Position numbers and translations under genes: made by a program. Below, piece by piece: positions 2,067 to 56,453 of a stretch of DNA of 64,000 bases (its first letter is position 1; each line of letters opens with the position of its first letter). The stretch comes from an uncultured Gammaproteobacteria bacterium (lineage in GTDB: Bacteria > Patescibacteriota > Patescibacteriia > UBA9934), in contig CAYFMS010000001.1 in NCBI GenBank assembly GCA_964344415.1, positions 186,620-250,619 on the forward strand, in the 5' to 3' direction. The notes under the pieces were generated by a model. That model was not told where the DNA came from. It did no database searches and saw nothing but the letters and a program-made list of their open reading frames with translations.

Positions 2067-2137
2067 AAGAAATAAATGATCCATGCGTATTACTAAGTGT
2101 AGATCTTGCAAGACTGCTCATAAATATAAAAAGGACT

Positions 2138-2668: not shown

Positions 2669-2690
2669 TATACAAATATATCCTCCCCTC

Positions 2691-2716
2691 AAAAACCGAG
2701 TATAGACTCGGTTTTT
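2691..2716 (+). terminator. rho-independent terminator ending the sigma module
   Basis: AAAAACCGAGT-ATAG-ACTCGGTTTTT. Confidence 0.55.
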
Positions 2717-2739
2717 GCTTTGATATAAGCTTCATATGT

Positions 2740-3543
2740 ATGGACATGGACCGCATTCGAGTGGAGGAGGAATATGTAAAAAGTATTATTTGGGGTGAGC
2801 AGATTGACTACGTCGCTCAAAAATATCATCAGATGAAGGTCTTGGAATTCATGGACCCTTCGCAAAAAGCATTTTGGATGCAGCTAAAGGAGAGGTATCC
2901 CGAAAAAGAAATCATCTTGCATGGAATTTCGCGTAGTAAGCGTGCAGAGAAGGGTATATATCACCATCTCTTTACTGAAAAACAGGGGAGGGTAATGAAA
3001 AAGAAGCAACTCAAGAAGCAATTGCCATATACGATTGCTCGTTTCGTATTTCGCGGAGGAGGTGATGAATACGATATTGAGAATCGCTATGATAAATTCC
3101 CATTTTTATCTAAATTCATAAAATGGCAGTCGAAGAGAATTGATGCATTTACATTACAGGTGATATTTGAGCTTTCTGATGCTCTTTATCCCTTCTCAAA
3201 AATTGAGCCAGATATTCTGTCACAGCATGAGGATGCAAAAGCATTTATAGAATCGCGCAGAATTCCAGATTTGCGCACGGTATGGATGTCTATTTTTGGT
3301 GTTGCTTTGCAAATTGATCGGGAAGCACGCATGCGTGGGTACGGTGTAAGGCTGATTGGGGAGCCTGTAACATTTATGAATGAATCGTCTGGTGAGAAAG
3401 TGCGAAAAATGGCTTATAGTTTTCATTTTGAGAAGGGTGCGCATATGCCCGTCAGCGATGTAGTACAAGATTTGAAAAATATAAAGTGGATTCGATTTGC
3501 TAATGGGGCGCCGCAAGATGTAAGTCAGTTTTTTTCTATATAA
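2740..3543 (+). CDS. hypothetical protein (267 aa, no family recognised)
   Basis: Long ORF with diverse composition, followed by a hairpin plus T-run at about 3584-3610. Confidence 0.5.
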   Translation: MDMDRIRVEEEYVKSIIWGEQIDYVAQKYHQMKVLEFMDPSQKAFWMQLKERYPEKEIILHGISRSKRAEKGIYHHLFTEKQGRVMKKKQLKKQLPYTIARFVFRGGGDEYDIENRYDKFPFLSKFIKWQSKRIDAFTLQVIFELSDALYPFSKIEPDILSQHEDAKAFIESRRIPDLRTVWMSIFGVALQIDREARMRGYGVRLIGEPVTFMNESSGEKVRKMAYSFHFEKGAHMPVSDVVQDLKNIKWIRFANGAPQDVSQFFSI

Positions 3544-4187
3544 AAACCGCAGGTATAAGCCGCGGCTACAAGAATGATCTCTTCGGGCGCTTGATTTCGC
3601 CCGTTTTTTCATAAACCAAGATACCGTGTCATCCCGGATGGAGCGAAACGAAGATCCTTCAATAGGCCCAGGATTTCGAATGTGGTCGCGAAGTGATTTA
3701 GCTGTAATGCAAAGGAGATAGAGGAGATTTATGAGTTTGTAGGTTTTAGCTGGTAGCTTGTAGGTACGGGGATCAGAGAAGTTAGAAAAGTGAGTAAAGC
3801 TAGAAAAGCGAGTTTGTATAGCAATGGGGGGGGGTAGAACATAGCACGTAGAGAAATGTGAAATCCCAGCCTACGAGCTGGGATCTATCAGTAATCACTA
3901 TTCTGGACTCGATCTAAATCTTTCACCTGGCCCGTGGATCCCAAATCAAGTTTGGGATTACGATCGGAAGTGCGCTAGCAACCAAGCAACAGAAACAAAA
4001 AATCAGCCCAAAGGCTGTTTTTATTCAACAGTTCATTTCACAACTCTGTGATTACAACGTCTTATTTACTGTCCCACTCCGCTCAGCAAGCTGAGCTTCG
4101 TTTGGGACGACTCGAGTTAAGAACTTGAGCCTCGACATTCACCATAGTATCCAGCAGGGCTGGATAACAAGTGATCTTTCTTCCCTA

Positions 4188-5686
<1,499 letters not shown>

Positions 5687-6262
5687 GTATCGAGCTATGC
5701 TCGACCTCTGCTCAGATCTTCTGTTCTGTCATTTCCCGAAGGAAAAGACTTCGTTGAAGATTCTATTGTTGCCATAAAATAAATTTCATGGACTTCGTAA
5801 TAGACGTTGTAATCACACAATTGTGAAAAATCTACTAGATGGGTTGTCATATATCTAGTAGACCTGTTGACATCAATGGTTTTACTCATGATGTATTTTT
5901 GAATGTTCGGGGGTTGCATTCAATTGCGCGGGAATATTACAACACCATAAAAAACCTGTCAAGGATTTTTGTGGGGTGAAGTTATTAAGAGATATAAACA
6001 AAAAAAATAACTCGCCGAAGCAAGATATTTTTGTGCGGGTGCATTGCGCTCCTAGATTATCAACCTATCCTAAGAGTATGGAAAAATAAGCTATTTGTCA
6101 AGTGCTAAAGCCCGTGGACCCAGAGGGGGTTGAACCCTCAAATCCTTGGTTGATAATCCAGGAAATGCAACCCGCTGGGCCCACGGAATTTAATACTCGA
6201 CAAAATAAAAGACCCCTCTAAGGGATCTGTTACTCACATTGTATCTTTCTAATTGAGCCGTA

Positions 6263-6931
6263 TCAAGAAGACTGTTCACTTCTCCACTCTTCGATCTTTT
6301 TATGATTCCCGGATAGGAGCACTGACGGAACCTTGAGCTCTTTCTTTTTTAGCCCTTTTCGCATCTTATAAACTTCTGGCTTTGTGTATTGCGGGTATTC
6401 TAAATATCCTTCCGTCGAATGTGATTCTTCTTGAAGTGTTTCTTTGTTGCCCAGCACGCCTGGAATCATCCGTGCGATTGCGTCGGTCATGACAAGGGCG
6501 GGGAGCTCGCCACCAGTAAGAACATAGTTTCCAATAGAGAGTTCTTCATCTGCGATTTCATCTATTACTCTTTGGTCAATTCCTTCGTATCGGCCGCAAA
6601 TAAAAATGAGCTGGTCGTATTTCGCGAGGCGCTTTGCATCTTCTTGTGTGAATGTTTTTCCTTTTGCGGATGTAACGATGATGCGAGATTTCTTTAATCG
6701 CTTCTTTACTTTGCGTACTGCTTTGTCAATCGGATCAATCATCATAACCATTCCTGGGCCGCCTCCGTACGGAGTGTCGTCGACTTGTTGATGCTTGCCA
6801 GATGCGAAGTCTCGAATATTGTGAGACGCAATCTTAATATGTTTATTCTTCTGCGCCCGTCCTAAAATTGAACCGTCAGTATATGGTGAGGTCATTTCAG
6901 GGAAGAGGGTGAGGATGTCGAATCGTTTCAT
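6263..6931 (-). CDS. trmD: tRNA (guanine37-N1)-methyltransferase
   Basis: MKRFDILTLFPEM...YGGGPGMVM...ICGRYEGIDQRV...GNYVLTGGELPALV; canonical TrmD motifs. Confidence 0.9.
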   Translation of the reverse strand: MKRFDILTLFPEMTSPYTDGSILGRAQKNKHIKIASHNIRDFASGKHQQVDDTPYGGGPGMVMMIDPIDKAVRKVKKRLKKSRIIVTSAKGKTFTQEDAKRLAKYDQLIFICGRYEGIDQRVIDEIADEELSIGNYVLTGGELPALVMTDAIARMIPGVLGNKETLQEESHSTEGYLEYPQYTKPEVYKMRKGLKKKELKVPSVLLSGNHKKIEEWRSEQSS

Positions 6932-6991
6932 AGGGGTAGTGTAGCAAAATAAAAAGCCAAGAAATAGATTCTGGCTTTTTTACATTTCAGA

Positions 6992-7342
6992 TTAAATCGT
7001 TAGATCATCTACGACAGAAGTGTCGATGTCTTCATCTGCTACTTCTTCCGTAGCAGCAGCTTCTGGAGCTTCTTCGCGTCTTGGTGGACGCTGTGATCCT
7101 TCGGGCTCGTGAATCTTGAGATTCACTCGAGCATTTTCTTTTGCTCCAACAATTTTGAGGAGCGTGCGCACTGATCGCGCTGTCTGACCAGATCGGCCAA
7201 TGACATATCCCATATCTTCTGGGTTCACGTGGAGGGTAATAAGGACACCACGTTCATCTATTTCTCTTTCTGTTTTTACATCCTCGGGGTGATTTACAAT
7301 CGCCTTTATGACGTATTCAACAAATTCTTGATCTCGTTCCAT
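6992..7342 (-). CDS. KH-domain RNA-binding protein (YlqC/UPF0109-like)
   Basis: 116 aa; the GYVIGRSGQTARSVRTLLK KH motif; sits upstream of trmD as in rpsP-KH-rimM-trmD operons, but no rimM is present here. Confidence 0.8.
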   Translation of the reverse strand: MERDQEFVEYVIKAIVNHPEDVKTEREIDERGVLITLHVNPEDMGYVIGRSGQTARSVRTLLKIVGAKENARVNLKIHEPEGSQRPPRREEAPEAAATEEVADEDIDTSVVDDLTI

Positions 7343-7582: not shown

Positions 7583-7598
7583 CGGACCCGAGCCTTCT

Positions 7599-7673
7599 GG
7601 ACTCGACGAGACTCGAACTCGCATTTCCCGGGTGACAAGCCAGGGTGAGTTTCCAATTACTCCACGAGCCCAA
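7599..7673 (-). ncRNA. tRNA-like small RNA gene (cloverleaf with imperfect anticodon stem; possible degenerate tRNA-Thr UGU)
   Basis: Minus-sense GGGCTCG TG GAGT-AATTGGAA-ACTC A CCCTGG-CTTGTCA-CCCGGG AAAT GCGAG-TTCGAGT-CTCGT CGAGTCC A. Acceptor, D-arm and T-arm (T-loop TTCGAGT) pair well; the anticodon stem has a central T.C mismatch and position 37 is C. An outer 7-bp helix CCCGAGC/GCTCGGG encloses it. Hairpin terminators sit on both sides. Confidence 0.35.
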
Positions 7674-19485: not shown

Positions 19486-19508
19486 AAAACCGCCGAAGCG
19501 GTTCTTTG
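19486..19508 (-). terminator. rho-independent terminator after the RNase P RNA
   Basis: Minus-sense AACCGC-TTCG-GCGGTTTTTTG. Confidence 0.5.
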
Positions 19509-19511
19509 ATT

Positions 19512-19975
19512 TCAGAAAACCGGTAAGCCGAATTCTGTCCTCGAATTCACCAGCAGGCCAGTGAATTGAGTGATGATCATCTATCTTGGGCGTATATTGC
19601 TATACGTCTCATGCGAGCTACCAAATTTGCTCTTGCACCGGAACGGGTTTACCGCAACCCCATGTCACCATGGAGCGAAATGCGTAGCCTTACGACATCG
19701 CATTACTTTTCACGTTTCACCCAGCTGGGCTGGGTTAGTATTGTCTCTGTGGCACTTTCCCTAAGCTTCGCTAGGCATTCCAGGAACAAGCGCTCTGCGC
19801 TCTTGAATCTTGCGATTCACCAGTTCCTTGAAAGCCAAGTTTATACCTCGGTCGCCGTTAGCGACGTTCCATTGCTTTTTACGTTGCCGTAAAAAGGGTG
19901 TTCGGACTTTCCTCACGCGCATCTGCGCGAGCGATCATCTAGTTTTCTAAATAATCCAGCAAGGCTGGACCAGGG
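19512..19975 (-). ncRNA. rnpB: RNase P RNA (bacterial type-A-like)
   Basis: Minus-sense carries GAGGAAAGTCCGAAC (P4 5' strand, plus 19904-19918 reverse-complemented), ACAGAATTCGGCTTA (P4 3' strand; plus 19525-19539), GGGTGAAACG and GGTAAACCCGTTCCGGTGCAAGAGCAAAT (cf. consensus GGUAAACCCCACCCGGAGCAAGGCCAAAU). End coordinates are approximate. Confidence 0.65.
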
Positions 19976-20067: not shown

Positions 20068-20562
20068 CTACTTTTCCGCGATGGTGCGGACGTTCTCAGC
20101 CCCGCTTGCCGCGTAGGCGGCGCGGCGTTCGTTTCGACGGCTCAGTTCGTGGCTTCGAAGCCAGCCGTTCATCTCAGAGCTGTTGAAATCGGAGTTTTTC
20201 CAGACATGCTGGCCCATGTCCGCATCGTCGGTGATTTCGTTCCGCTCGAGAGGCTCGATCAAGCTCCCGACGTAGTCGACGAGCTGATGTGGGACCGGCT
20301 TGTCATGATCCTTGAACCGAGACTCGCTGATGTACAGGAGTCGGTACAGAATCACGGTGGCATACCTTACGTGGATGCCACCACTGTCTACGAGGAGCGT
20401 CAACCGATCGTGGTAGCTGATCAGGTTGGGGTGAATGTCGCGATCGATATTCGAAGACGGCGTCTGCTTGGCCGGGGCCGGCTTCGGCATCTCGTCGCTA
20501 TCGATGAATTGCGGAAGTTTGCTCCGTCGCTTGATGCGACGGGCGGGAGGAGTGATACTCAT
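20068..20562 (-). CDS. hypothetical protein in a short high-GC segment (164 aa)
   Basis: Good RBS (GGAGACAGGCC-ATG) and a hairpin+T terminator after the stop; G+C clearly above the neighbours. An antisense ORF at 20149-20595 was judged spurious. Confidence 0.45.
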   Translation of the reverse strand: MSITPPARRIKRRSKLPQFIDSDEMPKPAPAKQTPSSNIDRDIHPNLISYHDRLTLLVDSGGIHVRYATVILYRLLYISESRFKDHDKPVPHQLVDYVGSLIEPLERNEITDDADMGQHVWKNSDFNSSEMNGWLRSHELSRRNERRAAYAASGAENVRTIAEK

Positions 20563-30308: not shown

Positions 30309-31046
30309 ATGAAGACTGAACTTGAATGGCTTGAGCGTCAACAAATGGCATCTGGTCAATTCCCGACTACGGCCTTGTATGAACCTACGGGGCTTGTGAG
30401 GGATGTGTCCACGATCTGTCCGACCTATTTGATCGTGCTGATGCTTACATTGCTGCGAGACCGTCGGGGTTACTCTGACCCTGTTCTGGATCGCATCGTG
30501 GAGCGCGGCCTCGATTTTCTCGAGGGACGGATGTACACCGATCCAGTGGAGGGTTTTCGTGCCTGGCATTTCAATGCCTTCTATCCGCCGGATTGGGAGG
30601 AAACGTGCTGGTGCTCATACCTTCTCGTGAAATCAGGGCGCATGAATCGTTCAGATTTCGATCCGCTTCGTCGACTTCTCGACGAAAATGCAACGGATAT
30701 GGGGATTGGTGTTTGGTTGAAGGATCCATACACTCCTGGAAACGGTGTGGCGAATGTCTTCGACCCTATCGTGTCGATGTCGATTCAGTATTGGCTTGAT
30801 CGGCTCTACGGTGATCAGATCGAGTCCGTCGATAAGTTTGTAGACTCGGCAATCAAGAATGAGATGGCGTCACTCTATTATGACCGTCATTTTCACGAGT
30901 TCTTCTACTGGATGACGGGACTGCGAAGTGATGTGCCATCTTTGGAGCATGATGACCATATTGTGTTCCACAATGCTCGTAGAAAGCGCTTGAATTACGC
31001 ATCGAAGGAGGTTTGGCGAGTGGCAGAACTACTCGCTTCAACCTGA
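30309..31046 (+). CDS. hypothetical protein with a prenyltransferase/squalene-oxidase-like repeat (alpha/alpha-toroid-like), high-GC gene
   Basis: LEWLERQQMASGQFP resembles a PFTB/QxxxGxW-type repeat; G+C visibly higher than flanks; strong terminator GGGGCC-GATAAAA-GGCCCCTTTTTT at 31047-31073. Confidence 0.45.
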   Translation: MKTELEWLERQQMASGQFPTTALYEPTGLVRDVSTICPTYLIVLMLTLLRDRRGYSDPVLDRIVERGLDFLEGRMYTDPVEGFRAWHFNAFYPPDWEETCWCSYLLVKSGRMNRSDFDPLRRLLDENATDMGIGVWLKDPYTPGNGVANVFDPIVSMSIQYWLDRLYGDQIESVDKFVDSAIKNEMASLYYDRHFHEFFYWMTGLRSDVPSLEHDDHIVFHNARRKRLNYASKEVWRVAELLAST

Positions 31047-35167: not shown

Positions 35168-35244
35168 GGGCCTGTAGCTCAGCTGGTTAGAGCGCAGAGC
35201 TTATACCTCTGTGGTCGATGGTTCGAGTCCATCCAGGCCCACCA
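35168..35244 (+). tRNA. tRNA-Ile (anticodon UAU, AUA-decoding), CCA encoded
   Basis: GGGCCTG TA GCTC-AGCTGGTTA-GAGC G CAGAG-CTTATAC-CTCTG TGGTC GATGG-TTCGAGT-CCATC CAGGCCC A CCA; perfect cloverleaf with anticodon loop CTTATAC. Confidence 0.85.
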
Positions 35245-46124: not shown

Positions 46125-47449
46125 ACATTGCCGTTATCGGAGCGGGTATCGCGGGACTTACTTGCGCGTATGAGCTTCAAAAAATGGGTCATCATGTAGA
46201 GGTTTTTGAAAAAGAGTCATATGTCGGCGGCCGCATGTCGACAAGAACGAAACGGGGATTCCCTATGGATATCGGCGCGAATCATTTGGCGAATGTCTAT
46301 ACGCATATGCGGGGCTATGCAGAAGAATTTGGTATTCCATGGAAGCCGGTTGAGTTTTTGAACTACAATATTATTCACCGTGATCACGAGGATGATATCG
46401 ATATGAGTCATGCGGCACCTCTGCTAAAAGACCTATCTCTTCGAACAAAGCGGAAATTGGCATGGCGTTCTCTTTTAGATACGAGAAAACGAACGGATTT
46501 TTTCAATCTTTCAACGGCGGCTAAATTCGATACAGGGAATGCAAAAGAGTATGCGCTCAAAAAACTGACAAAAGAGGCTCATGATTATCTTGTTGATCCA
46601 TTTGTAAGCGTTTATCAATTTCACCGAGCAGATGAAATCAGCTTGGGAATTGTATATGCCATGATGCGCTCTCATTACAAAAATAAAAAAGAATGGGATT
46701 TGCATCATTTGGATGGGGGAATGATTGCCTTGCCGCAGGCGCTTGCAGATAGATTAACGGTGCATACATCTACACCTGTTGATTGGGTCAAGCGAGGCAA
46801 GAATAGTGCGAAGATTTCAGTGAATGGGGAAGAGTATGCGTTTGACGTCGTTATTATTGCAACAACTGCTGATATTGCGCATAGCATATACAAAAATCCG
46901 ACCAAGACAGAAGCAGAATTATTGAAAAAGACAGAGTATGCCGCGACCGTCGGGGTTGGTTTTGAAATTCCGGTTGATTTACTCGGCGATACGACAATTG
47001 TTTGGGTTCCATTTGTCGAAGGTGGGCGCATTTCTGGCTATACGAATGAAGCGATGAAGGGGAATCGCATGATAAAAAATAGAAAAACATTGCTTCTCAC
47101 TTGGTTCCATGAGGAGTTTGCAAAAACGATTATCGATAAAACAGATAAAGAGATTTTTGATATAGCGAAAACCGAGCTCATGAAAGTTTGTCCATATCTA
47201 TCATCAAAAAAACAGCTTAAGAATCATGATTTGCAGCGCTGGCCGGCGGCCATGCCGAAATTTAAACAGGGCCATTTAAAGCTCGCAAAAAAATACCAAG
47301 ATCAAATAGGGAAGACCTCGGTATTTCTTTGTGGAGACTATTTGAATGCACCATGGACGGAAGGCGCGCTTCGAAATGGTCAGGCAGTCGCTGCCTTGAT
47401 TGATCGCTCAACTAAATCCTCATCGCTTGCCGCTTCTTTTCCGGTATAA
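46103..47449 (+). CDS. FAD-dependent oxidoreductase, amine-oxidase/protoporphyrinogen-oxidase-like
   Basis: N-terminal NIAVIGAGIAGLTCAYEL dinucleotide fold. Confidence 0.7.
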   Translation: MGKGGGVNIAVIGAGIAGLTCAYELQKMGHHVEVFEKESYVGGRMSTRTKRGFPMDIGANHLANVYTHMRGYAEEFGIPWKPVEFLNYNIIHRDHEDDIDMSHAAPLLKDLSLRTKRKLAWRSLLDTRKRTDFFNLSTAAKFDTGNAKEYALKKLTKEAHDYLVDPFVSVYQFHRADEISLGIVYAMMRSHYKNKKEWDLHHLDGGMIALPQALADRLTVHTSTPVDWVKRGKNSAKISVNGEEYAFDVVIIATTADIAHSIYKNPTKTEAELLKKTEYAATVGVGFEIPVDLLGDTTIVWVPFVEGGRISGYTNEAMKGNRMIKNRKTLLLTWFHEEFAKTIIDKTDKEIFDIAKTELMKVCPYLSSKKQLKNHDLQRWPAAMPKFKQGHLKLAKKYQDQIGKTSVFLCGDYLNAPWTEGALRNGQAVAALIDRSTKSSSLAASFPV

Positions 47450-49044
47450 AACTCATCACCGGTTAAATCCATATATAATTGCATTCCTGTTGCGAGTGTT
47501 CCATGCATGCCGGCAGCTCCACTTGTTGCATTGCACCAGTGAAGATTCGCAAATCCCGTTTCGCGCTTGAGCTTTCCAAGCGACAAATGCGCTGGTGTTA
47601 AATTCGCGCCATATGCATTCCCTTGCGGTGCCATGGCATAGTCTTCAAATGTCGTTGGTGACCCGATTGTTTTCACGACAATGTGCTTGCGAATATCTGG
47701 AATATAATATTTTGCAACCAAATCAATTAATTTTTCCGCGTACTGCATTTTGAGTTTTGCATATTCTGCATAGCTGCGGTCCTGCGCATCCTTGAAGAGA
47801 TCATAATTAACAAAGCTCGCGACCTCCATAATTTCATAATTGTCCCCAGGTGTTGTTCCAGGGGCATTTGAATGTAGCGTTGGCGTCGACATGAAGAACC
47901 AAATATCACTGAAGCGATCGTCGAGATCCTTTTTATGCCAATTTTCATTCATGTCCCAGCTCTGTAAATGCCAAATATTGAACTTTCCAAAACCGAGCTT
48001 TTTCAAATCAATATCTTTCAATCCAAGATAAATCATAATCCCAGAAGGGGAGTATTCATATGATAATTTCTTCTGCATTTCGGGTGAGAACTTCTCCCAT
48101 CCGATCAGATTCTTCGCCGCTTTTTGAGGATCGGCATTACAAATATACTCATTCGCATTAAAGCTCTTTCCATCTTTTGTTGTGACCTCTGTTACGCGGC
48201 CAAATTCCGTTTTGATTTTCTCAACAGGGGTTTCATAATAAATATGACAACCGTCTTTGCTGACAATAAAATCCGCAAGCGACTGAATATAATGCTTATA
48301 ATGTTTTGTTGGATAGTAAGCGCCAGTGTTGTACCCGGACATGAGCCCAACGAATGCAAAAATCGATAATTCATCGGGCGGGGCACCAAAATCACCTGCA
48401 TTTCCACCGAAAACGGCCTGTACTTCTTTTGAAAGTTTGCATTCCTCAAAAACGTTCTGCAATGTTGCTTTGCGATACTTCAAGAGAGTCAAAAATTGAG
48501 GCCATTTGATTAATTTCTCCCACCATTTAATCGGACGAATTGGCAATTTCTTCATTTCGCTCCGAATCTTTTTCATCAATTGAACAAAATTGTTGATCGA
48601 TTCTTTTTGGTCGGGGTAATGACTTGCAATACTTTCAGCGAGGCGATCGAATCCATAAGGAAATTTCACGCGTTTACCATCTGGAAGCACAATATGGTCA
48701 TATCCATCGGGATCATAAAGCTCGAAAGAAATATCTTGTTCAATGCCGAGTTTATTCAGGAAAACATTGAATTTCTCACCAGGGCCGCAACCCCAAATAT
48801 AATGAACTTGCGCGCAGAAATGGAATTCTCCTTGGCGGAATGTGTGGGCGTAACCTCCGGGTGTATCGTGCGCTTCTAGCATGCAAACCTTTTTACCAGC
48901 ATTTGCGAGAAGAGCGGCGCAGGATAGGGCGCTATGCCCCGTCCCGATAAAAACGTAATCATATTCATGCCCCTCTTCGTATCGCTTATTTTGCGCTTGC
49001 TTTTGTTCATCCGTAAGCGCACCTGTCGATGATTTTATTGCCAT
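47380..49044 (-). CDS. FAD-dependent oxidoreductase, phytoene-desaturase (CrtI)-like family
   Basis: YDYVFIGTGHSALSCAALLANAGKKVCMLEAHDTPGG; converges on the previous gene with a 70-bp overlap. Confidence 0.7.
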   Translation of the reverse strand: MAIKSSTGALTDEQKQAQNKRYEEGHEYDYVFIGTGHSALSCAALLANAGKKVCMLEAHDTPGGYAHTFRQGEFHFCAQVHYIWGCGPGEKFNVFLNKLGIEQDISFELYDPDGYDHIVLPDGKRVKFPYGFDRLAESIASHYPDQKESINNFVQLMKKIRSEMKKLPIRPIKWWEKLIKWPQFLTLLKYRKATLQNVFEECKLSKEVQAVFGGNAGDFGAPPDELSIFAFVGLMSGYNTGAYYPTKHYKHYIQSLADFIVSKDGCHIYYETPVEKIKTEFGRVTEVTTKDGKSFNANEYICNADPQKAAKNLIGWEKFSPEMQKKLSYEYSPSGIMIYLGLKDIDLKKLGFGKFNIWHLQSWDMNENWHKKDLDDRFSDIWFFMSTPTLHSNAPGTTPGDNYEIMEVASFVNYDLFKDAQDRSYAEYAKLKMQYAEKLIDLVAKYYIPDIRKHIVVKTIGSPTTFEDYAMAPQGNAYGANLTPAHLSLGKLKRETGFANLHWCNATSGAAGMHGTLATGMQLYMDLTGDEFYTGKEAASDEDLVERSIKAATA

Positions 49045-49112
49045 ATAATGAGAAGTTTAGCATAAAAAAACCACCGTCGCCTACAGATGTAGATTACGAT
49101 GATTGAAGTGTG

Positions 49113-49355
49113 TCACATCATTTTGAATACAAGTTCGATGAATACTCTCTTGAGTTCTTCGTCACTCTTGTATCCATAGATCCGATTTAGCCGATCGTGT
49201 TCACCTTCGATCGTTGCTCTGAAATCAATCAGAACTTGATCGGAGCTGACTTGATTGGCTTCTTGGTCGGTCTTGGAAAGCTCTCGAAGCCTTGCCACGC
49301 AATACTCGGTGGCAAAGCGGACGAGAACATGGGTCTCTTCCTGCGTCCAGCTCAC
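49113..49355 (-). CDS. hypothetical protein (80 aa), first gene of the high-GC segment
   Basis: ORF in GC-rich DNA; weak. Confidence 0.35.
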   Translation of the reverse strand: MSWTQEETHVLVRFATEYCVARLRELSKTDQEANQVSSDQVLIDFRATIEGEHDRLNRIYGYKSDEELKRVFIELVFKMM

Positions 49356-49364
49356 GCCGCCTCC

Positions 49365-49904
49365 TTACTTGGCTGCATTTGGATATTGTTCGAGATGGCT
49401 GTCCTCGTCGAGCAATTTGTATGCATACGCGATTGCCGCATCTGCGATTTGCTCGCGAGTTGTTTGACCGCCCAAGAGGTCATTGAACTCTTTGGGCATA
49501 GGCCCCATGTCTTTTGTTTTTTGGTACAAATTACGCGCAGCAATCGTGATGGAGTCCACGAGTGCATTGTGGGCCGCGCGTCTTGCTCGGTCCACGCGCT
49601 CCATTTCTCGGCGATCTGATTCGCCGACATGTACGCCTTTCATGTAATTTGACTGTTCATTGAATCTCATGCGAGATCCAAGATACGCCATCGCTTTTTC
49701 GTGGACCTGATCGACCAGCCGTTTGTACTTGTCGTACTCGGATTTGTCGATTTCTTCCAGTCTTTCCTCGAGATGATCGAGGAAACGGGACATTTTCGTG
49801 TCGTACATTCGCCCTTCTCCTCGTTCATTTTCTTCACGTCTCTCTTCTGATCCAGAGTAGAAATGTCCGTGAAGATGTTCTGGTACTTTGTGTCGTCCTT
49901 CCAT
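49365..49904 (-). CDS. hypothetical protein (179 aa, charged, helical)
   Basis: ORF 10 bp upstream of the 80-aa ORF on the same strand. Confidence 0.45.
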   Translation of the reverse strand: MEGRHKVPEHLHGHFYSGSEERREENERGEGRMYDTKMSRFLDHLEERLEEIDKSEYDKYKRLVDQVHEKAMAYLGSRMRFNEQSNYMKGVHVGESDRREMERVDRARRAAHNALVDSITIAARNLYQKTKDMGPMPKEFNDLLGGQTTREQIADAAIAYAYKLLDEDSHLEQYPNAAK

Positions 49905-50019
49905 AGAAGGTGGATTAAATTAGCAGTTTTTTAAGTTATTGTCAATGGTAGCATGCATGAAAGAATCAAAAAAACCGTCCCTCAAGCACCACCGGAGTGG
50001 GTCGGGGACGATCAGTAGC

Positions 50020-51084
50020 TTACTTCGTCATCTGCCAGCGCAGCATGTTGCCTGCGCGGAACGGTACAACACTTCCAATCTGTTCAGGCACCACCCAGGA
50101 TTTGCGTGTGAGGGTGATGGTTTCCTTGTTCAGTGGAAGATTGTAGAATTCGGCTCCGAAGCGCGAGCAGAAATCGTCGAGACGATTGATCGAATCTGCG
50201 TCTTCGAAGATTTCGGCGAGTACCTGTGGGAGTACGGGTGCAGAATAGACTCCGCATGCTCCCTTGGCGCATTCTTTCCTGTCGCGTACATGTGGCGCTG
50301 TGTCAGATCCAAGGAAGAACTTCGAGCTACCAGAGGTGGCAGCGTCAATAAGTGCATCCCGGTCTGTGAAATCCTTCGGCATTGGCATGCAACCGTTGTG
50401 AGGTCGAATGCCATAGCCGATCACATCATTCAGCGTGAGCTGAAGGTGATGCGCCGTGATCGTCGCTGCTACATTCTCACCAAGCTGCAAAACCGTGTCG
50501 GCTGCTGCTTTGGTGGAGATGTGCTCGAGCACAATCTTGAGATCCGGGAAGGATTCGGCCAATCGAAGGAGAGTAGGGAGGAAGACTTCCTCGCGACGTG
50601 TCACGAGTACACGATCGTGATCGATCTCGCCATGGATCAGCAGAAGCATTCCGATGTCCCGCATAGCCCGAAAGGTCTCGGTGATTTCGGGGGCGAAAAA
50701 GTCTCGCAGGCCTTCATCAGAGTTGGTTGTCACGCCTGCAGGGTAGATTTTCCCAGCAACTGCGCCAGCTTGATGGGCTGAGACGACCATTTCCGGTGTT
50801 GTATTGTCCCGGATGTCGATCGTCATCAGAGGCTTGAAGTTCGGTCGTTCCGTCATTCCATCGAGCACATGCTCGATTTCACCCCGATACCACTCCACAT
50901 CTTTTGCTTCCAAGATTGCGCGTGGTCGAGTGTTTGGCATTGCCAGACCTCGGCCAGCGTAATGCGCCGTCCATGGAAGCACTTCCTTCAGCATATCGCC
51001 GGTACGGAAGTGGCAATGAAGATCGTCGAGTTTCCGCAAGACGATCTTCGTCAAAGCATTGCTTGATTCTTGTGATGTCATCAC
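50020..51084 (-). CDS. pyrC: dihydroorotase, class II (E. coli PyrC type)
   Basis: Matches E. coli PyrC across its length (e.g. LDDLHCHFRTGDMLK..., LHLLIHGE..., FLGSDTAPHVRDRKE...) as recalled from memory. Confidence 0.85.
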   Translation of the reverse strand: MMTSQESSNALTKIVLRKLDDLHCHFRTGDMLKEVLPWTAHYAGRGLAMPNTRPRAILEAKDVEWYRGEIEHVLDGMTERPNFKPLMTIDIRDNTTPEMVVSAHQAGAVAGKIYPAGVTTNSDEGLRDFFAPEITETFRAMRDIGMLLLIHGEIDHDRVLVTRREEVFLPTLLRLAESFPDLKIVLEHISTKAAADTVLQLGENVAATITAHHLQLTLNDVIGYGIRPHNGCMPMPKDFTDRDALIDAATSGSSKFFLGSDTAPHVRDRKECAKGACGVYSAPVLPQVLAEIFEDADSINRLDDFCSRFGAEFYNLPLNKETITLTRKSWVVPEQIGSVVPFRAGNMLRWQMTK

Positions 51085-52034
51085 TTCTCCCAGTTGAGAC
51101 GTTGTGCCTCGTTGATGATTGAACGCAAGCGCCAGGGGCGCAGCGTGGATACAGATCCGATGAACACCGAAGAAGCTCCTGCCCGATGATAGTGAGTCAC
51201 GTCATCTGCAGCAAGAATTCCGCCGCCGCCATTGATCGGTTTTTGAAATCCGGCTTCTCTCAATCGAGTGATCCAGTTGCAGACAATCGGACGCAAAATA
51301 GCGCCAGAGATGCCGCCACCACCATACTTGGCGAGTGGTGATGTGTCGGTACCCCATACCTGCTCCCAATCGATCATAGGATCGCCGAACTTGATGGTGT
51401 TCGAAACACAGATAGCATCGCAGGCCGCGTGCTGATCAAGTTCCAATACTGCCTCCACTGGTGCATTGGCAGCGAATTTTGGCATCACTGGCACATTGAG
51501 TGCTTGTGCGATGTCAAGAACTTGTTCGGATTCACCAATGAGTTCACGTGGATCATGGCCTGTATTTGGGCAGGAGAGATTGATCTGCAGCCCAAACGGT
51601 GCACGAAAATTAGGCTTGCACTGTCCAATGAGATCGATCATGGCCCGCAGTTCATCGAGTCGTTCATTCGAAGACTCTGCCACGGACATAATCGAAAGCA
51701 GGAAGGGTTCAGTGCGATTCTGCCAGATCCCAGCGTCCAGAAGAGTCTGAAGTCCTGGTCCGCTCAAGCCGACTGCATTGAGCATCATGCCACGCCATGG
51801 GGCGATCGAAACACAGTCCGGGAAGCGATGCTTGGGCGTGTGATGATCGGTCAGCACCATATTCCCGTCACGCGGGTGCAGTGTTGTTGTTTTCGACACG
51901 AATGCCGAACCGTTGAAGTCAAATCCGCCAAATAGACGTTTGAAGTACCAATGTTGCCAGTAGCCTTCACCGCCGAATCCACGAACGCCTGCTGCATCCA
52001 GCACAGAGCCAAATTCAATACCTCGCAATTTCAT
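51081..52034 (-). CDS. pyrD: dihydroorotate dehydrogenase-like (class 1 DHOD/DHPD TIM-barrel family)
   Basis: GMMLNAVGLSGPG, INLSCPNT, GGGISGAILRP and INGGGGI motifs; coupled to pyrC (ATGA). Confidence 0.7.
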   Translation of the reverse strand: MKLRGIEFGSVLDAAGVRGFGGEGYWQHWYFKRLFGGFDFNGSAFVSKTTTLHPRDGNMVLTDHHTPKHRFPDCVSIAPWRGMMLNAVGLSGPGLQTLLDAGIWQNRTEPFLLSIMSVAESSNERLDELRAMIDLIGQCKPNFRAPFGLQINLSCPNTGHDPRELIGESEQVLDIAQALNVPVMPKFAANAPVEAVLELDQHAACDAICVSNTIKFGDPMIDWEQVWGTDTSPLAKYGGGGISGAILRPIVCNWITRLREAGFQKPINGGGGILAADDVTHYHRAGASSVFIGSVSTLRPWRLRSIINEAQRLNWEK

Positions 52035-52465
52035 GCGTTACTCCTTTGAATGGTTTGTTGAGTTGTTTAAGAACACGGGAACCAATGACACGCTATCAGA
52101 AGACTCATGTGCGCACAAGTGATATACGTGAACCCATGCATGTTGCCATCCTAGATTTAAATAGAACAAAAAAACCGCAGATTTCTCTACGGTCGCGATT
52201 TGGTCACCTGATTCGTGAAGGCATTTTCGTCAATGCCTAATCTTCGGTAGCGGTTGTATTGACACTTTCAAAAAAATAAGTTACTCTTTGCCCACAAATA
52301 AGCCTTCTCTTTACACATTTTGTGTGCGAGAGAAATGGTGTTAAGTCTTCCGAGTACATGGAAAGATTTGAGCAGTGACGAAGCGTACTGAAATGTACGG
52401 TGAGGAGCGGCGCAGAATCTTGACGCAGTAATCGATAGACTTGGGCACTATTTCTGTAAGAAAAA

Positions 52466-52540
52466 GGCCCCATCGTCTAGTGGTTAGGACGCCAGGTTTT
52501 CATCCTGGAAATCGGGGTTCGATTCCCCGTGGGGTCACCA
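52466..52540 (+). tRNA. tRNA-Glu (anticodon UUC), CCA encoded
   Basis: GGCCCCATCGTCTAGTGGTTAGGACGCCAGG-TTTTCAT-CCTGGAAATCGGGGTTCGATTCCCCGTGGGGTCACCA. Confidence 0.9.
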
Positions 52541-52698
52541 ATTTGAAAGTCACCGAAAGGTGGCTTTTAAATTGGTACCTAAGAACAGTCCTGAGGACTG
52601 TTCGAGGGAATCGAACGGCCGGAGCGATGTGCGGCCAGCAGGACGCACCGCGAGGCCCGGTTCCGAATGCGACATTCTGCAGAATGTGGACATGAGGA

Positions 52699-52719
52699 CG
52701 ATTCCCCGTGGGGTCACCA
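52699..52719 (+). repeat. direct duplicate of the tRNA-Glu 3' end (att-like remnant)
   Basis: CGATTCCCCGTGGGGTCACCA is identical to 52520-52540, 160 bp downstream. Confidence 0.6.
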
Positions 52720-52838
52720 CGAAAAAAGTTCAGCTTCTGCTGGGCTTTTTTCGTTATGATCTCCATGGAGGGATTGAAGTCCGTTTACAAAATAAAACGC
52801 CCCTCTGAAAAGAGGGGCTCGTGGCGCTGGCTTGTCGT

Positions 52839-53489
52839 CTACGTGACGACATCCGAGAGTTGGATATAGCAGCGTCTTGGGTTCCAGTTGTTTTCATTTC
52901 CATCCCACGGTGATGCGATGGATAGGCGAATGGTGCAGTTTTCGTATACGAATCTTCCTCGATGCCGAGCGCGGAGCTCAGTTCCGACAATGCTTACACC
53001 GCTCAGCACATGACCCGTTTGGTCAATGATGCTCGCACGTCTACTGTGGCCATCAATGATCACTTTACTGTGACGCACATATCCAACGGATCGTGGTAGC
53101 GGTTGCTCGGGAATGTAGCGATCAGTGAACACCATGTCGGGGTACAAATCGAGGATCGAATCATACGAAAAGGCTTCAACGACCTCTTCGCGCATCTTTT
53201 GCACTAATCTCCGCCCCGGTAGTTTTAGGGACTGGGGATTGATGCGTAGGTCTTCCGGATGTGTCGGCCTTGGGCATCCATCGATCAGTTCGCGAATATC
53301 CACGCGAGCGCCGAAATTCCATTTGGCACGAATCTCTTTTTCAGTGAGCGATGTTTCATCATATTGCATGGAGTACCCATGTTGATTCATCAGCCGATAC
53401 TGACGCCAAACACCGCGCACTTGTCTTGCGACGCAGGTACAGAATCGGCCGCCACTCATTTCCGTTCTTGAAAGCACATATGCGCGCAT
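52839..53489 (-). CDS. hypothetical protein (216 aa), coupled downstream partner of the DUF488 gene
   Basis: ORF whose ATG overlaps the DUF488 stop; His/Arg-rich block VIIDGHSRRASIIDQTGHVLSGVSIVGTELRARHRGRF; high GC. Confidence 0.5.
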   Translation of the reverse strand: MRAYVLSRTEMSGGRFCTCVARQVRGVWRQYRLMNQHGYSMQYDETSLTEKEIRAKWNFGARVDIRELIDGCPRPTHPEDLRINPQSLKLPGRRLVQKMREEVVEAFSYDSILDLYPDMVFTDRYIPEQPLPRSVGYVRHSKVIIDGHSRRASIIDQTGHVLSGVSIVGTELRARHRGRFVYENCTIRLSIASPWDGNENNWNPRRCYIQLSDVVT

Positions 53490-54181
53490 CAGGACCTCCA
53501 GCCGCGAGGGGGAGATGCTTTGATATTGGCTCCTGGGATTGGTTCTACCAGGTACCTTCTCGGAGATTTGCGCGACGGTTTCGACCCACCGACTTCCTCG
53601 GGCGAGAGATGAGCTTCATCGACTCCGTGAACCCACTTGCTGATCAATCCGGTCGCCACATGTCTATGGCAATCCAAATGATGCTGGCAAGCGCACATAA
53701 TGGCGATGCCCGTATGAGGACCGTCAATCAGTGTTCGAAGAGGATTCCCTTCGCGCAGAACACGATTCTCTTTTGCAATCATTGCCATGTACTGCTTCAG
53801 GAATGCTGTCCAGGCATGCGCTCGGTCTTCTTGCGTGCTCGGCGTTTTTGGGCTCAGCACTTTGTGCAGATCTGTGCGCATCGACTGTGTCGGTGCGAGT
53901 TCCAGCATGTGCACATAGGGCACATCATGCAATTCGCACATGTACTCGAGGTCTTCTGCGAATGCGAAACGTGCTCTTCCATAGGATCGGCTTCTGCGCG
54001 TGTCAACGAGCAGCGGGTTGCCATGCTTTTTCAGCAGGGCGAAGAAGTTCCGTGCACTCATGCCGCAGCTGATCGAAAAGATGTTTTTCAGATGAGGTAC
54101 GCGTATTTGCGAAACCTCTTCCGTTGTTTTTGTGAAAAGATCGGGTTGGTCACTCATGTATCCTCCAATGATTGGTGACAA
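53489..54181 (-). CDS. DUF488-family protein
   Basis: IFSISCGMSARNFFALLKKHGNPLLVDTRRSRSYGRARFAFAEDLEYMCELHDVPYVHMLELAP and the C-terminal CACQHHLDCHRHVATGLI (CHR motif) fit the PF04343 pattern as recalled. Confidence 0.6.
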   Translation of the reverse strand: MSPIIGGYMSDQPDLFTKTTEEVSQIRVPHLKNIFSISCGMSARNFFALLKKHGNPLLVDTRRSRSYGRARFAFAEDLEYMCELHDVPYVHMLELAPTQSMRTDLHKVLSPKTPSTQEDRAHAWTAFLKQYMAMIAKENRVLREGNPLRTLIDGPHTGIAIMCACQHHLDCHRHVATGLISKWVHGVDEAHLSPEEVGGSKPSRKSPRRYLVEPIPGANIKASPPRGWRS

Positions 54182-54285
54182 TGCAAACTAACGTTTTGTG
54201 ATGTGATTGTCAATAGCCCAGCATTGACAAAAGAGCATATTTTTGATCTAATGACATGCACACATTGTGATAAAAGGAGGCTACA

Positions 54286-55071
54286 TTGTGTCGAATTATT
54301 CTTAAAAAAAGTGATTTGATTTTCGGAGAAACCGAAATTGAATCCGCATTTACATTTGCTGAAGAGAATGCGAATGACCTAGCGAATCTGATCAGCGTGT
54401 ATGACTACCATGCCTTGGCCGATCTGCATGTGCCGAATATCATTCGAAAAGCGCATGCACAGTTTCAATATGAGATTCATAGATCGCTCGCTATCGCGGT
54501 CACCCTGCTTCTTGCTTCGGGACTGAGTATGGATAAACGAGCGAAGGATGCATGGACTCCATTCCACTGCATGATTCTTGCACAGCAGAAGATGGTGGAA
54601 GCGATACTTAATCTCAGTGAGCATGATTTGAAATGCTTCTTACGTGTATTTCCAAAGTCCGACCTTACTAAGACGGCTTGGAAAAAGCTGATTGGTGGGT
54701 GCATTACGGTTACAAAGATCGTTCATGCACTGATCGAAAAGCATGAGATGCAAGTGGAATTCCCAACGCCTCAAGAGGATGGGAAGTATCAGATTGACCT
54801 TTTTGTCAGGCTGGACAAAAAGAGATTGATCGCGATGCAAATCAAATCTACATCGCAAAATTACATTGACGTTTTGCGGTATGGTGATCGATACTCCGAT
54901 TCAGCTCTTCGAGAATTCTTGAAACGAGCTGAGATCTTCCAAGAGGTCAACAGGCATGTGGTTATCTATCCAGTTTTTTTTACGGCTGCGAGAAATAACC
55001 GACAGTGGGAATTGCATGACCCGGTCATTGTTAACATGCTTGGGCGAATGTTTGGGCAGATCAAGAACTAG
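54286..55071 (+). CDS. hypothetical protein (261 aa), possible PD-(D/E)xK-like nuclease fold
   Basis: The D...QxK arrangement (QIDLFVRLDKKRLIAMQIKS) is suggestive only; high GC. Confidence 0.45.
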   Translation: MCRIILKKSDLIFGETEIESAFTFAEENANDLANLISVYDYHALADLHVPNIIRKAHAQFQYEIHRSLAIAVTLLLASGLSMDKRAKDAWTPFHCMILAQQKMVEAILNLSEHDLKCFLRVFPKSDLTKTAWKKLIGGCITVTKIVHALIEKHEMQVEFPTPQEDGKYQIDLFVRLDKKRLIAMQIKSTSQNYIDVLRYGDRYSDSALREFLKRAEIFQEVNRHVVIYPVFFTAARNNRQWELHDPVIVNMLGRMFGQIKN

Positions 55072-55172
55072 TAACGCTTGTGTAAACGGGCGTTTTTTTA
55101 TTTAGGGTAATTGGTAACTTTGCGACCAATGCGGCATATCCGATATTAGTTGGATTGACAAAAAGGTGATTT

Positions 55173-55643
55173 TTGTGTATGATTCGGCGCAATCGTCAAC
55201 GGCGTTTGGCGATATTTGGAGGGGAATTGAACAAAAAATTGGTTCACATTGGCTGGGCATTCAGCGCCTTTGCCGTCATTGGCACCATCCTGCTTACCGC
55301 GGGCTGTGATCCGGTCGAATATGGCCCGACATCGCTCGAGATGCAGGAACTGTCATTCACTGTCTCGCATGACGTGTCGCTGACAGTGGAATTCGACGGC
55401 GGTACGAGCGTACACAAGTTCATCGCAGGTTCTGCTGGATTTCACGCGCTCCACCGAGGTGCATTCGATGTCGTGATTTGCGGCGAACCGTCCGACATCG
55501 ACCATGTCTGCGAACTGAGCGGACTGGAAGTGAACGAAGCGTCCTTGCCGCGAGACATCGCGAATGTCGACGGCATGGCATGCATTTCGATCGCGTCGGG
55601 AACGGCGGTCGAATCACAAGTGAATTTGGCGCGGTGCAACTGA
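55173..55643 (+). CDS. putative lipoprotein
   Basis: Signal peptide ending in the lipobox LLTAGC; high GC; strong terminator follows. Confidence 0.5.
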   Translation: MCMIRRNRQRRLAIFGGELNKKLVHIGWAFSAFAVIGTILLTAGCDPVEYGPTSLEMQELSFTVSHDVSLTVEFDGGTSVHKFIAGSAGFHALHRGAFDVVICGEPSDIDHVCELSGLEVNEASLPRDIANVDGMACISIASGTAVESQVNLARCN

Positions 55644-55657
55644 GCGCTCGCCAAAAC

Positions 55658-55692
55658 AAAAGCCGGCTCCATACGGGAGCCGGCTATTTTAT
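55658..55692. terminator. strong hairpin terminator at the right edge of the high-GC segment
   Basis: AGCCGGCTCC-ATAC-GGGAGCCGGCTATTTTAT. Confidence 0.6.
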
Positions 55693-55697: not shown

Positions 55698-56453
55698 TTA
55701 TTTTTTTAGATTATCAGCAATGGTGTCGAATGCTCGCAGTACCTCAATCGGTGTTGCAAAAATGACGGTATTTGACTGGTCAGATGATAAATCATTCAGT
55801 GTAGAAAGCGTTCTTAAATGAAGAGCTCCAGGGGTCTCAGCAAGCATTCCTGCGGCTTGTCTCAAATTCTCAGCAGCTTGAATTTCCCCCTGAGATTTAA
55901 TGACAACTGATCGACGTTCACGTTCCGCCTCGGCCTGCTTCGCAATCGTCCGTTTCATATTGTCTGGCAGAATAATATCTTTCAATTCAACATTCTCTAC
56001 AGAAATTCCCCAAGGGTCGGTTAGCTGATCAACAATATCTTTAATCTTCTTTGAAGCTACATCTCGCTTTGCATTCAATTCATCAAGTTCCATTTCTCCA
56101 ACAACATTACGCATGGTTGTTTGCGCAAGCTGGCTCACGGCATGATAATAATTTGCGACATTGATGGTTGCTTTCGCCGCATCTTTCACTCTGTAATAAA
56201 TCACAGCATTAATTTTGGCCGGGATATTGTCTGCTGTAATTGCTTCTTGATCGGGAACATCGACAGCAAGAACGCGAATATCAACTTTTCGCATACTTTG
56301 AATAATCGGAAAAACCAATCTCCATCCCGGTTCAAGGGTTGATGTATATTTTCCTAAGGTGAATTTAACACCGCGCTGATACTCATTGATTTGTCTAATG
56401 CTGATCAATACGATGAAAATCGCTAAAATGACAAGTGTTGTAATAAATGGCAT
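55698..56453 (-). CDS. SPFH/band-7 (stomatin/prohibitin-like) membrane protein
   Basis: N-terminal TM helix then a typical SPFH core (...RVLAVDVPDQEAITADNIPAKINAVIYYRV...) and coiled-coil tail. Confidence 0.85.
   Translation of the reverse strand: MPFITTLVILAIFIVLISIRQINEYQRGVKFTLGKYTSTLEPGWRLVFPIIQSMRKVDIRVLAVDVPDQEAITADNIPAKINAVIYYRVKDAAKATINVANYYHAVSQLAQTTMRNVVGEMELDELNAKRDVASKKIKDIVDQLTDPWGISVENVELKDIILPDNMKRTIAKQAEAERERRSVVIKSQGEIQAAENLRQAAGMLAETPGALHLRTLSTLNDLSSDQSNTVIFATPIEVLRAFDTIADNLKK

Follow-up and report, generated by a model that had tools for sequence, protein, structure and literature searches.

In the 64,000-nt stretch of an uncultured bacterium analysed here (GenBank assembly GCA_964344415.1, contig CAYFMS010000001.1, positions 186,620 to 250,619; hereafter the window), the last 21 nt of the tRNA-Glu(UUC) gene recur a short distance downstream, in the middle of a 6.6-kb GC-rich segment. 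This raises the question of whether the repeat delimits the segment or belongs to something else. An earlier note on this DNA had read repeat and segment together as an old, partly decayed island or as successive insertions at a tRNA hot spot. Our data favour a joint explanation, to which we assign a probability of roughly 0.6: a tRNA-derived cassette of about 180 bp was inserted at the 3' end of tRNA-Glu, and foreign genes accumulated around it separately. Recurrence, architecture, compensated stems, strand bias, arm switching, filled and empty sites and tandem copies could all be demonstrated for the cassette family.

A pattern search found CGATTCCCCGTGGGGTCACCA exactly at 52520-52540 and 52699-52719, where none would be expected by chance, so that the duplication described before is real. 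The two copies lie at a distance of 179 nt. The 158 bp between them are non-coding, with a GC content of 54% compared with 44% for the window. The GC-rich genes are all located outside the copies, four of them 5' of tRNA-Glu (49113-52034) and the rest past the second copy. The region from 49 to 57 kb contains no further tRNA-end copy at up to 6 mismatches in 18 positions, apart from a reverse-strand match overlapping the second copy; over the whole window, matches at this threshold occur at the chance rate. Since the copies are so close together, the GC-rich genes lie outside them and a third copy is missing from the edges, the repeat cannot be the border of the 6.6-kb segment, and this part of the earlier interpretation has to be given up. 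Moreover, an element integrating at the 3' end of a tRNA gene cannot account for the pyrD-pyrC half, which is located 5' of the tRNA.

Using the exact 21-mer as a probe, metagenome contigs were scanned and 120 loci were obtained (L-numbers denote fetched metagenomic loci), most of which are plain tRNA-Glu genes. Among the tRNA-Glu loci with at least 230 nt of downstream sequence (n = 81), ten show a repeat of the last 18 nt of the tRNA (at most 3 mismatches), which starts 124-189 nt past the tRNA 3' end; some of these loci are near-identical pairs. They share a common order of tRNA, terminator, a folded sequence of 100-170 nt whose start pairs with the copy, and a further terminator. The window aligns with L061 across the first terminator, the folded element and the second copy, and the same unit is found without an upstream tRNA in L061/L125 and L027. 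In L116, a LOOT RNA (Rfam RF03000, 52.8 bits) is located at 918-1023, about 55 nt 3' of the cassette behind tRNA-Glu(CUC).

The DNA bracketed by the repeat in the window is accordingly a cassette, consisting of a terminator-like hairpin (T1) and a folded element of 147 nt (E) that ends in the second tRNA-end copy (R2); a further terminator (T2) follows. Positions are given in Table 1. E alone folds with a z-score of -4.5. It is tRNA-derived in outline, with acceptor and T stems and a plain hairpin in place of the D and anticodon arms, while the T-loop has given way to a Y-shaped insert of about 90 nt whose internal loops are GA-rich. T1 is homologous to the corresponding hairpin of L061, with compensated changes. 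The position of the optional hairpin P1a is occupied by unrelated yet perfectly paired sequence in L061, L094, L051, L013 (Val) and L009 (Leu). Hairpin A contains the conserved motif GGAGCGA..GCCAGCAGG..CCGCGAGG, which was found again in L061, L116, L108, L051 and L013. The apical stem of hairpin B reads CCGCUC/GAGCGG in L061, GGCCGA/UCGGCC in L116 and CGCGUU/AACGCG in L118. R2 is probably the displaced original end of tRNA-Glu. T2 agrees with the terminator directly 3' of tRNA-Glu in L054 at 27 of 34 positions by our count, and by this resemblance it is probably the native tRNA-Glu terminator. A second, truncated element may start behind T2, a tentative and weak assignment that rests on a 10-mer match and on position.

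Table 1. Features of the tRNA-Glu locus in window coordinates.
Feature	Position	Strand	Description	Basis
Left gene block	49113..52034	-	80-aa open reading frame (ORF); 179-aa ORF (weak DUF3232 match); pyrC; pyrD-like gene	ORFs, profile scans
pyrC; pyrD-like gene	50020-51084; 51081-52034	-	4-nt overlap	
tRNA-Glu(UUC)	52466..52540	+	Encoded CCA; last 21 nt (52520-52540) are repeat copy R1	ARAGORN; Rfam tRNA 65.8 bits; pattern search (R1)
T1	52541..52572	+	Perfect 14-bp hairpin, GAAA loop, terminator-like, directly 3' of tRNA; part of cassette	Fold
5' arm, part a	52573..52580	+	UGGUACCU, pairs with GGGU(C)ACCA of second tRNA-end copy	Minimum-energy structures
P1a	52583..52603	+	Optional 9-bp hairpin between parts a and b	Fold, stem table
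5' arm, part b	52606..52613	+	GGGAAUCG, pairs with CGAUUCCC, the T-loop/T-stem part of the copy	Inverted 11-mer
Hairpin A	52617..52657	+	Three stacked stems; GGA/GA and GA/GA internal loops	Fold, alignment
Hairpin B	52662..52698	+	Apical stem ACAUUC/GAAUGU	Fold, alignment
R2	52699..52719	+	Exact second copy of tRNA-Glu positions 56-76; 3' arm of closing helix	Pattern search
T2	52720..52755	+	Intrinsic terminator between A and T runs	Fold; inverted repeat I4
Candidate start of second, truncated element	52756..52790	+	TTATGATCTC..GGAGGGA	Resembles L019-type 5' arm
Right gene block	52839..55643		DuOB-like ORF 52839-53489 (-); DUF488 gene 53489-54181 (-); 261-aa ORF 54286-55071 (+); 156-aa putative lipoprotein 55173-55643 (+)	

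Several lines of evidence indicate that the fold is under selection. In a hand-aligned stem table, pairing is retained with differing sequences in stems a1, a3, b0, b1 and P1a. Stems a1 and a3 of hairpin A are altered on both sides in L116, L027, L118 and L108, and P1a is wholly different in sequence between the window and L061 with perfect pairing in both. In a tool-made alignment of the window, L061 and L116, 82.5% of the cells pair, compared with 31-46% when the partners are slid by 1-3 columns. Six pairs are changed on both sides in this alignment, a value that 1 of 500 shuffles reached; for hairpin B five pairs altered on both sides were counted, and the helix formed by part b of the 5' arm retains 100% of its pairs. 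A covariance model built from the same three sequences recovered the untrained L027 (55.7 bits), L118 (48.6), L108 (41.5), L051 (34.3) and L013 (28.9). Among the 16 minimum-energy folds, 11 have an arm helix of 12-17 bp, and that of L118, L072 and L104 has 7-8 bp and is restricted to the T-loop/T-stem part; L027 and L054 show 5-6 arm pairs and L108 none.

All 16 Glu-type instances are more stable on the tRNA strand than on its complement, by up to 16-18 kcal/mol, owing to G.U pairs between their 5' arms and the invariant 3' arm. In the folding calculations this bias points to RNA, or single-stranded DNA of the tRNA strand, as the functional form. It also bears on the possibility that the fold is a mere by-product, and that E is a miniature inverted-repeat transposable element (MITE) or an invertible segment which has inverted ends that match the tRNA end by coincidence and which acts as double-stranded DNA only. 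The 5' arm and R2 are indeed inverted repeats, the ends read TGGT...ACCA in the window and in L061, and the copies are patchy and in some cases truncated. Nevertheless, G.U pairs would not be selected in double-stranded DNA, the covariation within hairpins A and B is independent of the terminal repeats, dispersed copies are missing from the window, and the 18-21 nt repeated directly on the flanks belong to a gene and are no short target duplication. We regard this explanation as very improbable.

We found that the arms of the element are matched to the adjacent tRNA. The window lies on a 768-kb metagenome contig (ERZ930061) of a Patescibacterium near Candidatus Uhrbacteria, to which the best named ArgS matches belong. 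The nearest relative found, L013, has an ArgS that is 68% identical. Behind its tRNA-Val(UAC), the covariance model identified an element with the same hairpin-A and hairpin-B motifs, which ends in tRNA-Val positions 56-76 and has the complementary 5' arm GCGUUGA, hairpin, GGGAC. The same layout is present in L009 behind tRNA-Leu, with arms matched to tRNA-Leu. There, CCA is absent from both the gene and the copy. The gene was hence the template rather than the mature tRNA, which makes an origin of the copy by reverse transcription unlikely. In L051, the 5' arm GACCCCA, hairpin, CGGGG corresponds to the tRNA's own 5' acceptor and T-stem strands bar one base. Over every tRNA gene in the fetched loci, duplications of the end were seen in 13 of 88 tRNA-Glu genes (the window and its own contig counted) and in 3 of 122 others, namely Val and Ile in L013 and Leu in L009. 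The cassettes apparently form an undescribed family that is associated with the 3' side of Glu, Val and Leu tRNA genes in uncultured Patescibacteria-like bacteria with small genomes.

The Ile case concerns an insert of a different kind at the same type of site. At 3267-3437 of L013, a 153-nt AT-rich insert with its own long inverted repeat GGAAAATATGAT...ATCATATTTTCT stands behind tRNA-Ile(UAU) and is followed by an exact 18-nt copy of that tRNA end. The terminator that follows tRNA-Ile(UAU) in the window stands after the second copy in L013, giving an empty and a filled site in related genomes. This tRNA gene is located at 35168-35244 in the window, at 3190-3266 in L013 and at 42-118 in L014, the latter two being Uhrbacteria-like relatives. 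A UAU anticodon is uncommon in bacteria for AUA codons, as most of them use a lysidine-modified CAU tRNA.

Further comparisons document gain and loss. T2 of L059 resembles T1 of L106 and, together with the similarity between T2 of the window and the L054 terminator, this indicates that cassettes sit between the tRNA and its native terminator. L059 carries two tandem units with unrelated T1, of which the distal one folds poorly and contains a degraded copy. Between L059 and L112, identity is 99.9% as far as CCCCGTGG within R2, and the sequences are unrelated beyond it. A 788-nt indel with its start inside E distinguishes L019 from L075, which are 98.7% identical upstream of it and 83% downstream. 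Despite an identical tRNA, the cassette is absent from L025 (compared with the window) and from L067 (compared with L059). The genes 3' of the short cassettes are variable and accessory (PIN toxins, lipase, CAAX protease). The 3' end of tRNA-Glu is a genuine insertion hot spot, in line with what the earlier note had supposed, and in several uncultured lineages the region of this tRNA is a hot spot of recombination.

These comparisons have to be weighed against the possibility that E is an immobile resident small-RNA gene, which arose by local duplication of the tRNA and serves as a mimic of the tRNA top half, that is, as a decoy or regulator for acceptor-end factors. It would be co-transcribed or processed with tRNA-Glu (e.g. 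by RNase P, RNase Z or the CCA-adding enzyme), and its patchiness would reflect loss through recombination of the 21-nt copies. The strand-specific fold with compensated stems, the terminators on both sides and the tRNA-derived outline, which in L051 extends to the tRNA's own strands, would all fit such a gene. The GC content of the 158-nt spacer is also like that of the genome's other structural RNAs, and L019-type elements track one tRNA-Glu lineage, as expected for vertical descent. On the other hand, the same core occurs with Glu and with Val arms in related genomes, complete units stand without an upstream tRNA in L061 and L027, and the tandem unit of L059 has an unrelated T1. Moreover, the terminator homologies imply insertion between tRNA and terminator, distal copies decay, and the cassette can be absent behind an identical tRNA. 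Overall, we consider a resident RNA gene possible but rather unlikely.

Known RNA families were also considered. No Rfam 15 model matched 52541-52719 at its gathering threshold, and at E values of up to 10 there were weak microRNA-type matches at the outer edges, all far below gathering scores (RF03729 at 52537-52576; RF03356, SNORA47 and SorY at about 52692-52793). Likewise, Rfam gave no match on the element in 13 other element-bearing loci. ARAGORN and the Rfam tRNA model find a tRNA cloverleaf at 52466-52540 alone, and the folds of the cassette lack a T-loop and an anticodon arm. tmRNA, the signal recognition particle RNA, 6S and 5S RNA, Y RNA, small ribozymes and a group I intron in the T-loop were ruled out by size, missing motifs and the Rfam and ARAGORN searches. 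Known tRNA introns of Patescibacteria are located at position 35/36 and not in the T-loop (PMC13011429).

A true integrative element is present at the same type of site in L051. Here, a 6.5-kb element (498-7320) has entered tRNA-Glu(CUC), and its large serine recombinase gene overlaps the 3' end of the tRNA. Behind this gene come a rolling-circle replication (RCR) Rep protein (REP_ORF2-G2P/RepSA-like) and cargo genes, with a trypsin-like protease, a DUF559 protein and a HATPase protein. About 6.5 kb downstream, a degenerate copy of the tRNA end is followed by T1, an E element and another copy, a layout indicating that the insertion of the integrative element at the tRNA displaced an older cassette in the downstream direction. 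No E-like sequence is present at the recombinase element's own end.

Some of the 120 scanned loci are fragments of another tRNA-Glu(CUC), comprising its 3' part from about the anticodon loop on (L011 10019-10052; L121, L079, L114, L026, L030, L037, L023, L073 and others). Several of them share downstream flanks with the intact-tRNA loci L128, L022, L097 and L110, and judged by these shared sequences, fragments and intact loci are classical attR/attB pairs. A P22-like phage contig, which carries portal and terminase genes, ends in one of the fragments.

It could thus be argued that the repeat of the window is likewise an attL/attR scar, left by one or more large, decayed, integrase-borne islands of which the 6.6-kb segment is the remains. 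Besides the recombinase element of L051, the att fragments and the phage contig, two observations favour this: the repeat spans the T-loop to the CCA end, which is said, in work by Williams from 2002 (Nucleic Acids Res), to be the typical identity block of tRNA-integrating elements, and all eight ORFs of the segment are atypical in composition. However, the 158 bp between the copies hold no coding remnant, the GC-rich genes lie outside the copies with half of them 5' of the tRNA, and a third copy is missing even at 6 mismatches. Independent decay would not yield homologous, structure-conserving inserts of 100-170 nt in at least ten loci, nor arms matched to Val and Leu, and the recombinase element of L051 has no such insert at its own end. 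Decayed islands as the source of the repeat are therefore improbable.

A phage origin was also rejected. In viral contigs, the 21-mer and the 18-mer matched tRNA arrays of phages and a single phage contig, at whose end lies a fragment of a different tRNA-Glu, and nothing else. A degenerate hairpin-A pattern gave chance matches only, and the covariance model found none in the 100 of 120 of those loci that were searched. The cassette had no match in cultured phages or plasmids, and the DuOB-like and 261-aa proteins have no close viral relatives.

For the insertion of a tRNA-derived cassette, which we favour, the following mechanism may be proposed. Selection on the fold of the tRNA strand suggests that the cassette acts as RNA or as single-stranded DNA of that strand. 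Cassettes would be gained and lost by recombination at the repeated tRNA end, with new units entering beside the tRNA and older units being pushed downstream. We infer that the cassette is a non-autonomous insertion element or a mobile RNA gene, moved either by a recombinase that acts in trans on the folded mimic of the tRNA end or by homologous recombination of an excised circle. As an RNA it might, at a guess, serve as a mimic of the tRNA top half that is handled by tRNA-processing enzymes. The GC-rich flanking genes would have entered separately and are not delimited by the repeat. More speculatively, and only as a tentative suggestion, the cassettes might be miniature non-coding mobile elements, or mobile RNA genes, that form a class of their own and a new one. 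In these, the folded top-half tRNA mimic would be a retargetable attachment site or a decoy, and the specificity for Glu, Val or Leu would be set by both helix arms matching the last 18-21 nt of the target and not by an encoded protein.

A number of observations weigh against this explanation. A DNA circle of 150-180 bp poses physical difficulties for classical integrases, and no recombinase was linked to any short cassette examined. The cassette is present as a single copy in the 64 kb, and none stands behind any of the other five tRNA genes of the window. The closing helix is missing from the minimum-energy folds of L054 and L108, and it was not recovered by MAFFT/RNAalifold on mixed subfamilies, in which the 5' arms were misaligned; the three-sequence alignment, the hand-made stem table and the covariance model were used instead. 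As the Glu-type members were all found with the exact 21-mer probe, the invariance of the 3' arm is partly a matter of ascertainment. The terminal ACCA is paired in the window and in L061, which would be unneeded for a faithful substrate of RNase P or the CCA-adding enzyme. As to the flanking genes, pyrD and pyrC are native to the phylum, so that any donor would be another Patescibacterium and not a distant lineage, and no close relative with an empty locus for the GC-rich block was found among the genomes compared.

One of the other tRNA genes, a predicted tRNA-Thr(UGU) at 7597-7672 (-), has a low Rfam score (44 bits) and no encoded CCA, unlike the window's other five. The 16S rRNA gene at 4189-5685 (-) has no 23S gene in the window and opposite-strand protein ORFs on its downstream side, and the rRNA genes of this organism appear to be unlinked.

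The composition of the segment is clearly distinct. The GC content of the window is 44.3%, and not about 40% as had been estimated. Sliding GC values reach 0.47-0.54 at 49.0-54.0 and 54.5-56.0 kb, compared with 0.40-0.46 over most of the window. The GC content at third codon positions (GC3) of the eight ORFs in 49113-55643 is 0.48-0.63, corresponding to z-scores of +3.0 to +7.3 against the 43 other genes of the window (mean 0.379, standard deviation 0.034, maximum 0.455). The edges are sharp, as the abutting genes for an amine oxidase (47380-49044) and an SPFH protein (55698-56453) have z-scores of +1.0 and -1.2, respectively, and a hairpin at 55661-55685 corresponds to the terminator reported for the right end. 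Codon bias B is raised to 0.35-0.58 in the eight ORFs, compared with about 0.17-0.46 in other genes, the ranges overlapping. The earlier description of the segment as compositionally distinct thus stands, with a composition that is unlike that of the host in all eight ORFs; their position is not that of an island lying 3' of a tRNA gene, with four of the eight 5' of tRNA-Glu. Homologues of the SPFH protein (48-71% identical) are encoded 3-5 kb from tRNA-Glu, in differing orientations, in L072 (7031-7756), L117 (7748-8167) and L086 (7020-7724), which is a loose, old linkage.

The two further GC-rich patches noted before are genuine atypical ORFs as well. The ORF at 20068-20562 (-; 164 aa) is the most atypical gene of the window, with a GC3 of 0.745 (z = +10.7), and has no Pfam match; the GC-rich stretch adjoining it is the RNase P RNA gene (19508-19950, -). 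The second isolated case, at 30309-31046 (+; 245 aa), has a GC3 of 0.55 (z = +4.9) and no Pfam match.

With regard to the gene content of the segment, the earlier annotation held in part. The pyrC gene is genuine (TIGR00856, 327 bits, above the NCBIfam cut-off), while the pyrD-like gene is divergent in profile scans. The supposed DUF488 pair consists of one DUF488 protein, which also matches the candidate-defence model PDC-M45C, and a weakly assigned DuOB-like protein, whose family is rare (47 cluster representatives among 1.84 billion); literature searches on DuOB and DUF488 brought up nothing useful. The ORF described as PD-(D/E)xK-like has a weak DUF4365 match only (E = 0.006). The lipobox-like LTAGC of the 156-aa ORF can be read from its translation, in agreement with the predicted lipoprotein. 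No integrase or recombinase domain was detected in the ORFs of the segment by Pfam, NCBIfam and PADLOC scans, as had been stated; intergenic pseudogene fragments are outside these scans. A 30-nt direct repeat (73% identical) is located at 49917-49946 and 54185-54214, just upstream of two minus-strand starts, those of the 179-aa ORF and the DUF488 gene. Both copies show TTGACA and a -10-like box on the minus strand and, from these motifs, are probably related promoters.

Homologues in Patescibacteria number in the hundreds, with 57-64% identity for the pyrD-like protein and 66-75% for PyrC, and the two-gene pyrD-pyrC operon is widespread there. In L015 (9050-11035) and L016 (7049-9035), the pair is GC-rich (GC3 0.52-0.56) compared with its lower-GC neighbours, and the nearest gene upstream of it in L016, about 800 bp away, encodes a large serine recombinase (4890-6254, -). 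Stand-alone pyrD-like genes have a host-like composition. In several Patescibacteria genomes the pair stands out as a module of distinct composition, and from these sequences it looks like one exchanged within the phylum.

Of eight window proteins that an exact look-up retrieved, seven have no other member in their cluster at 90% identity, which means that no close relative has been sampled. In the nearest relatives (ArgS 58-68% identical) synteny is lost beyond ArgS. A search of genome contigs with the flanking 554-aa amine oxidase gave two matches, neither of them syntenic, and L025, with an identical tRNA-Glu, has different neighbours. The GC-rich genes are probably accessory and horizontally acquired, gathered in a variable region around tRNA-Glu; the evidence for this is their composition and the variable character of the site in other lineages. 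The island reading of the earlier note thus retains the foreign-looking composition, the hot spot and the repeat as a signature of insertion. The features it described are genuine and the kind of process it proposed is right; what it mistook is the object to which the repeat belongs.

Duplicated tRNA ends are routinely taken for island footprints, while here the footprint is that of a structured cassette of 180 bp. In these genomes, island callers that use such duplications would set borders in the wrong place. Should the family be confirmed, it would add an unannotated structured RNA or DNA element to the Patescibacteria, whose very small genomes have little spare non-coding DNA, and it would provide a natural case of one helix re-matched to different tRNA genes.

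Several known systems resemble the cassettes, and we regard these likenesses as leads and not as memberships. With tRNA-integrating islands, prophages and remnants of the cis-mobilizable element (CIME) type they share the direct repeat of the tRNA 3' end from the T-loop on, the insertion between an intact tRNA and a displaced end with the native terminator, and tandem accretion (L051, L059). In contrast to att-flanked remnants, the cassettes are non-coding, measure 100-180 bp and have a conserved fold whose far arm is complementary to the repeat; moreover, they exist in versions matched to different tRNAs and have no linked integrase. MITEs and the Correia, BOX and REP elements are also short, non-coding, bounded by inverted repeats, strongly folded and patchy among strains. 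These differ from the cassette, which is tRNA-end-specific, is flanked by 18-21 nt of gene sequence and has covarying internal hairpins. Many dispersed copies with short target-site duplications would be typical of MITEs, whereas the window holds a single copy.

The tRNA-like domain of tmRNA, the Y RNA YrlA and mascRNA resemble the cassette in having an acceptor/T-stem-like helix, an ACCA tail and an adjoining tRNA gene, and a cassette RNA could plausibly be handled by tRNA-processing enzymes as well. Unlike these RNAs, it has no T-loop, D arm or anticodon arm, and the sequence of its 3' strand is copied literally from the tRNA gene beside it. By analogy, the cassettes may also be compared with integron attC sites and the CTX-phage attP used by XerCD, where imperfect inverted arms about 90 nt apart, structure over sequence and strand-specific pairing are found. 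After integration of the CTX type, a hairpin of inverted arm, loop and direct arm likewise stands at one end, beside the regenerated target site. The cassette differs in that its stem mimics a tRNA gene end and not an R-box or dif, that the whole element would be only about 180 nt long, and that no IntI, Xer or other recombinase was identified with it; a recombinase is found at the site in L051 only (the serine recombinase with the RCR Rep), in the element without E at its own end. As in folded att sites, imperfect inverted arms nevertheless form a hairpin whose stem recreates the target site in most of the minimum-energy folds. The + strand is favoured in 16 of 16 cases, and the arms follow the identity of the adjacent tRNA.

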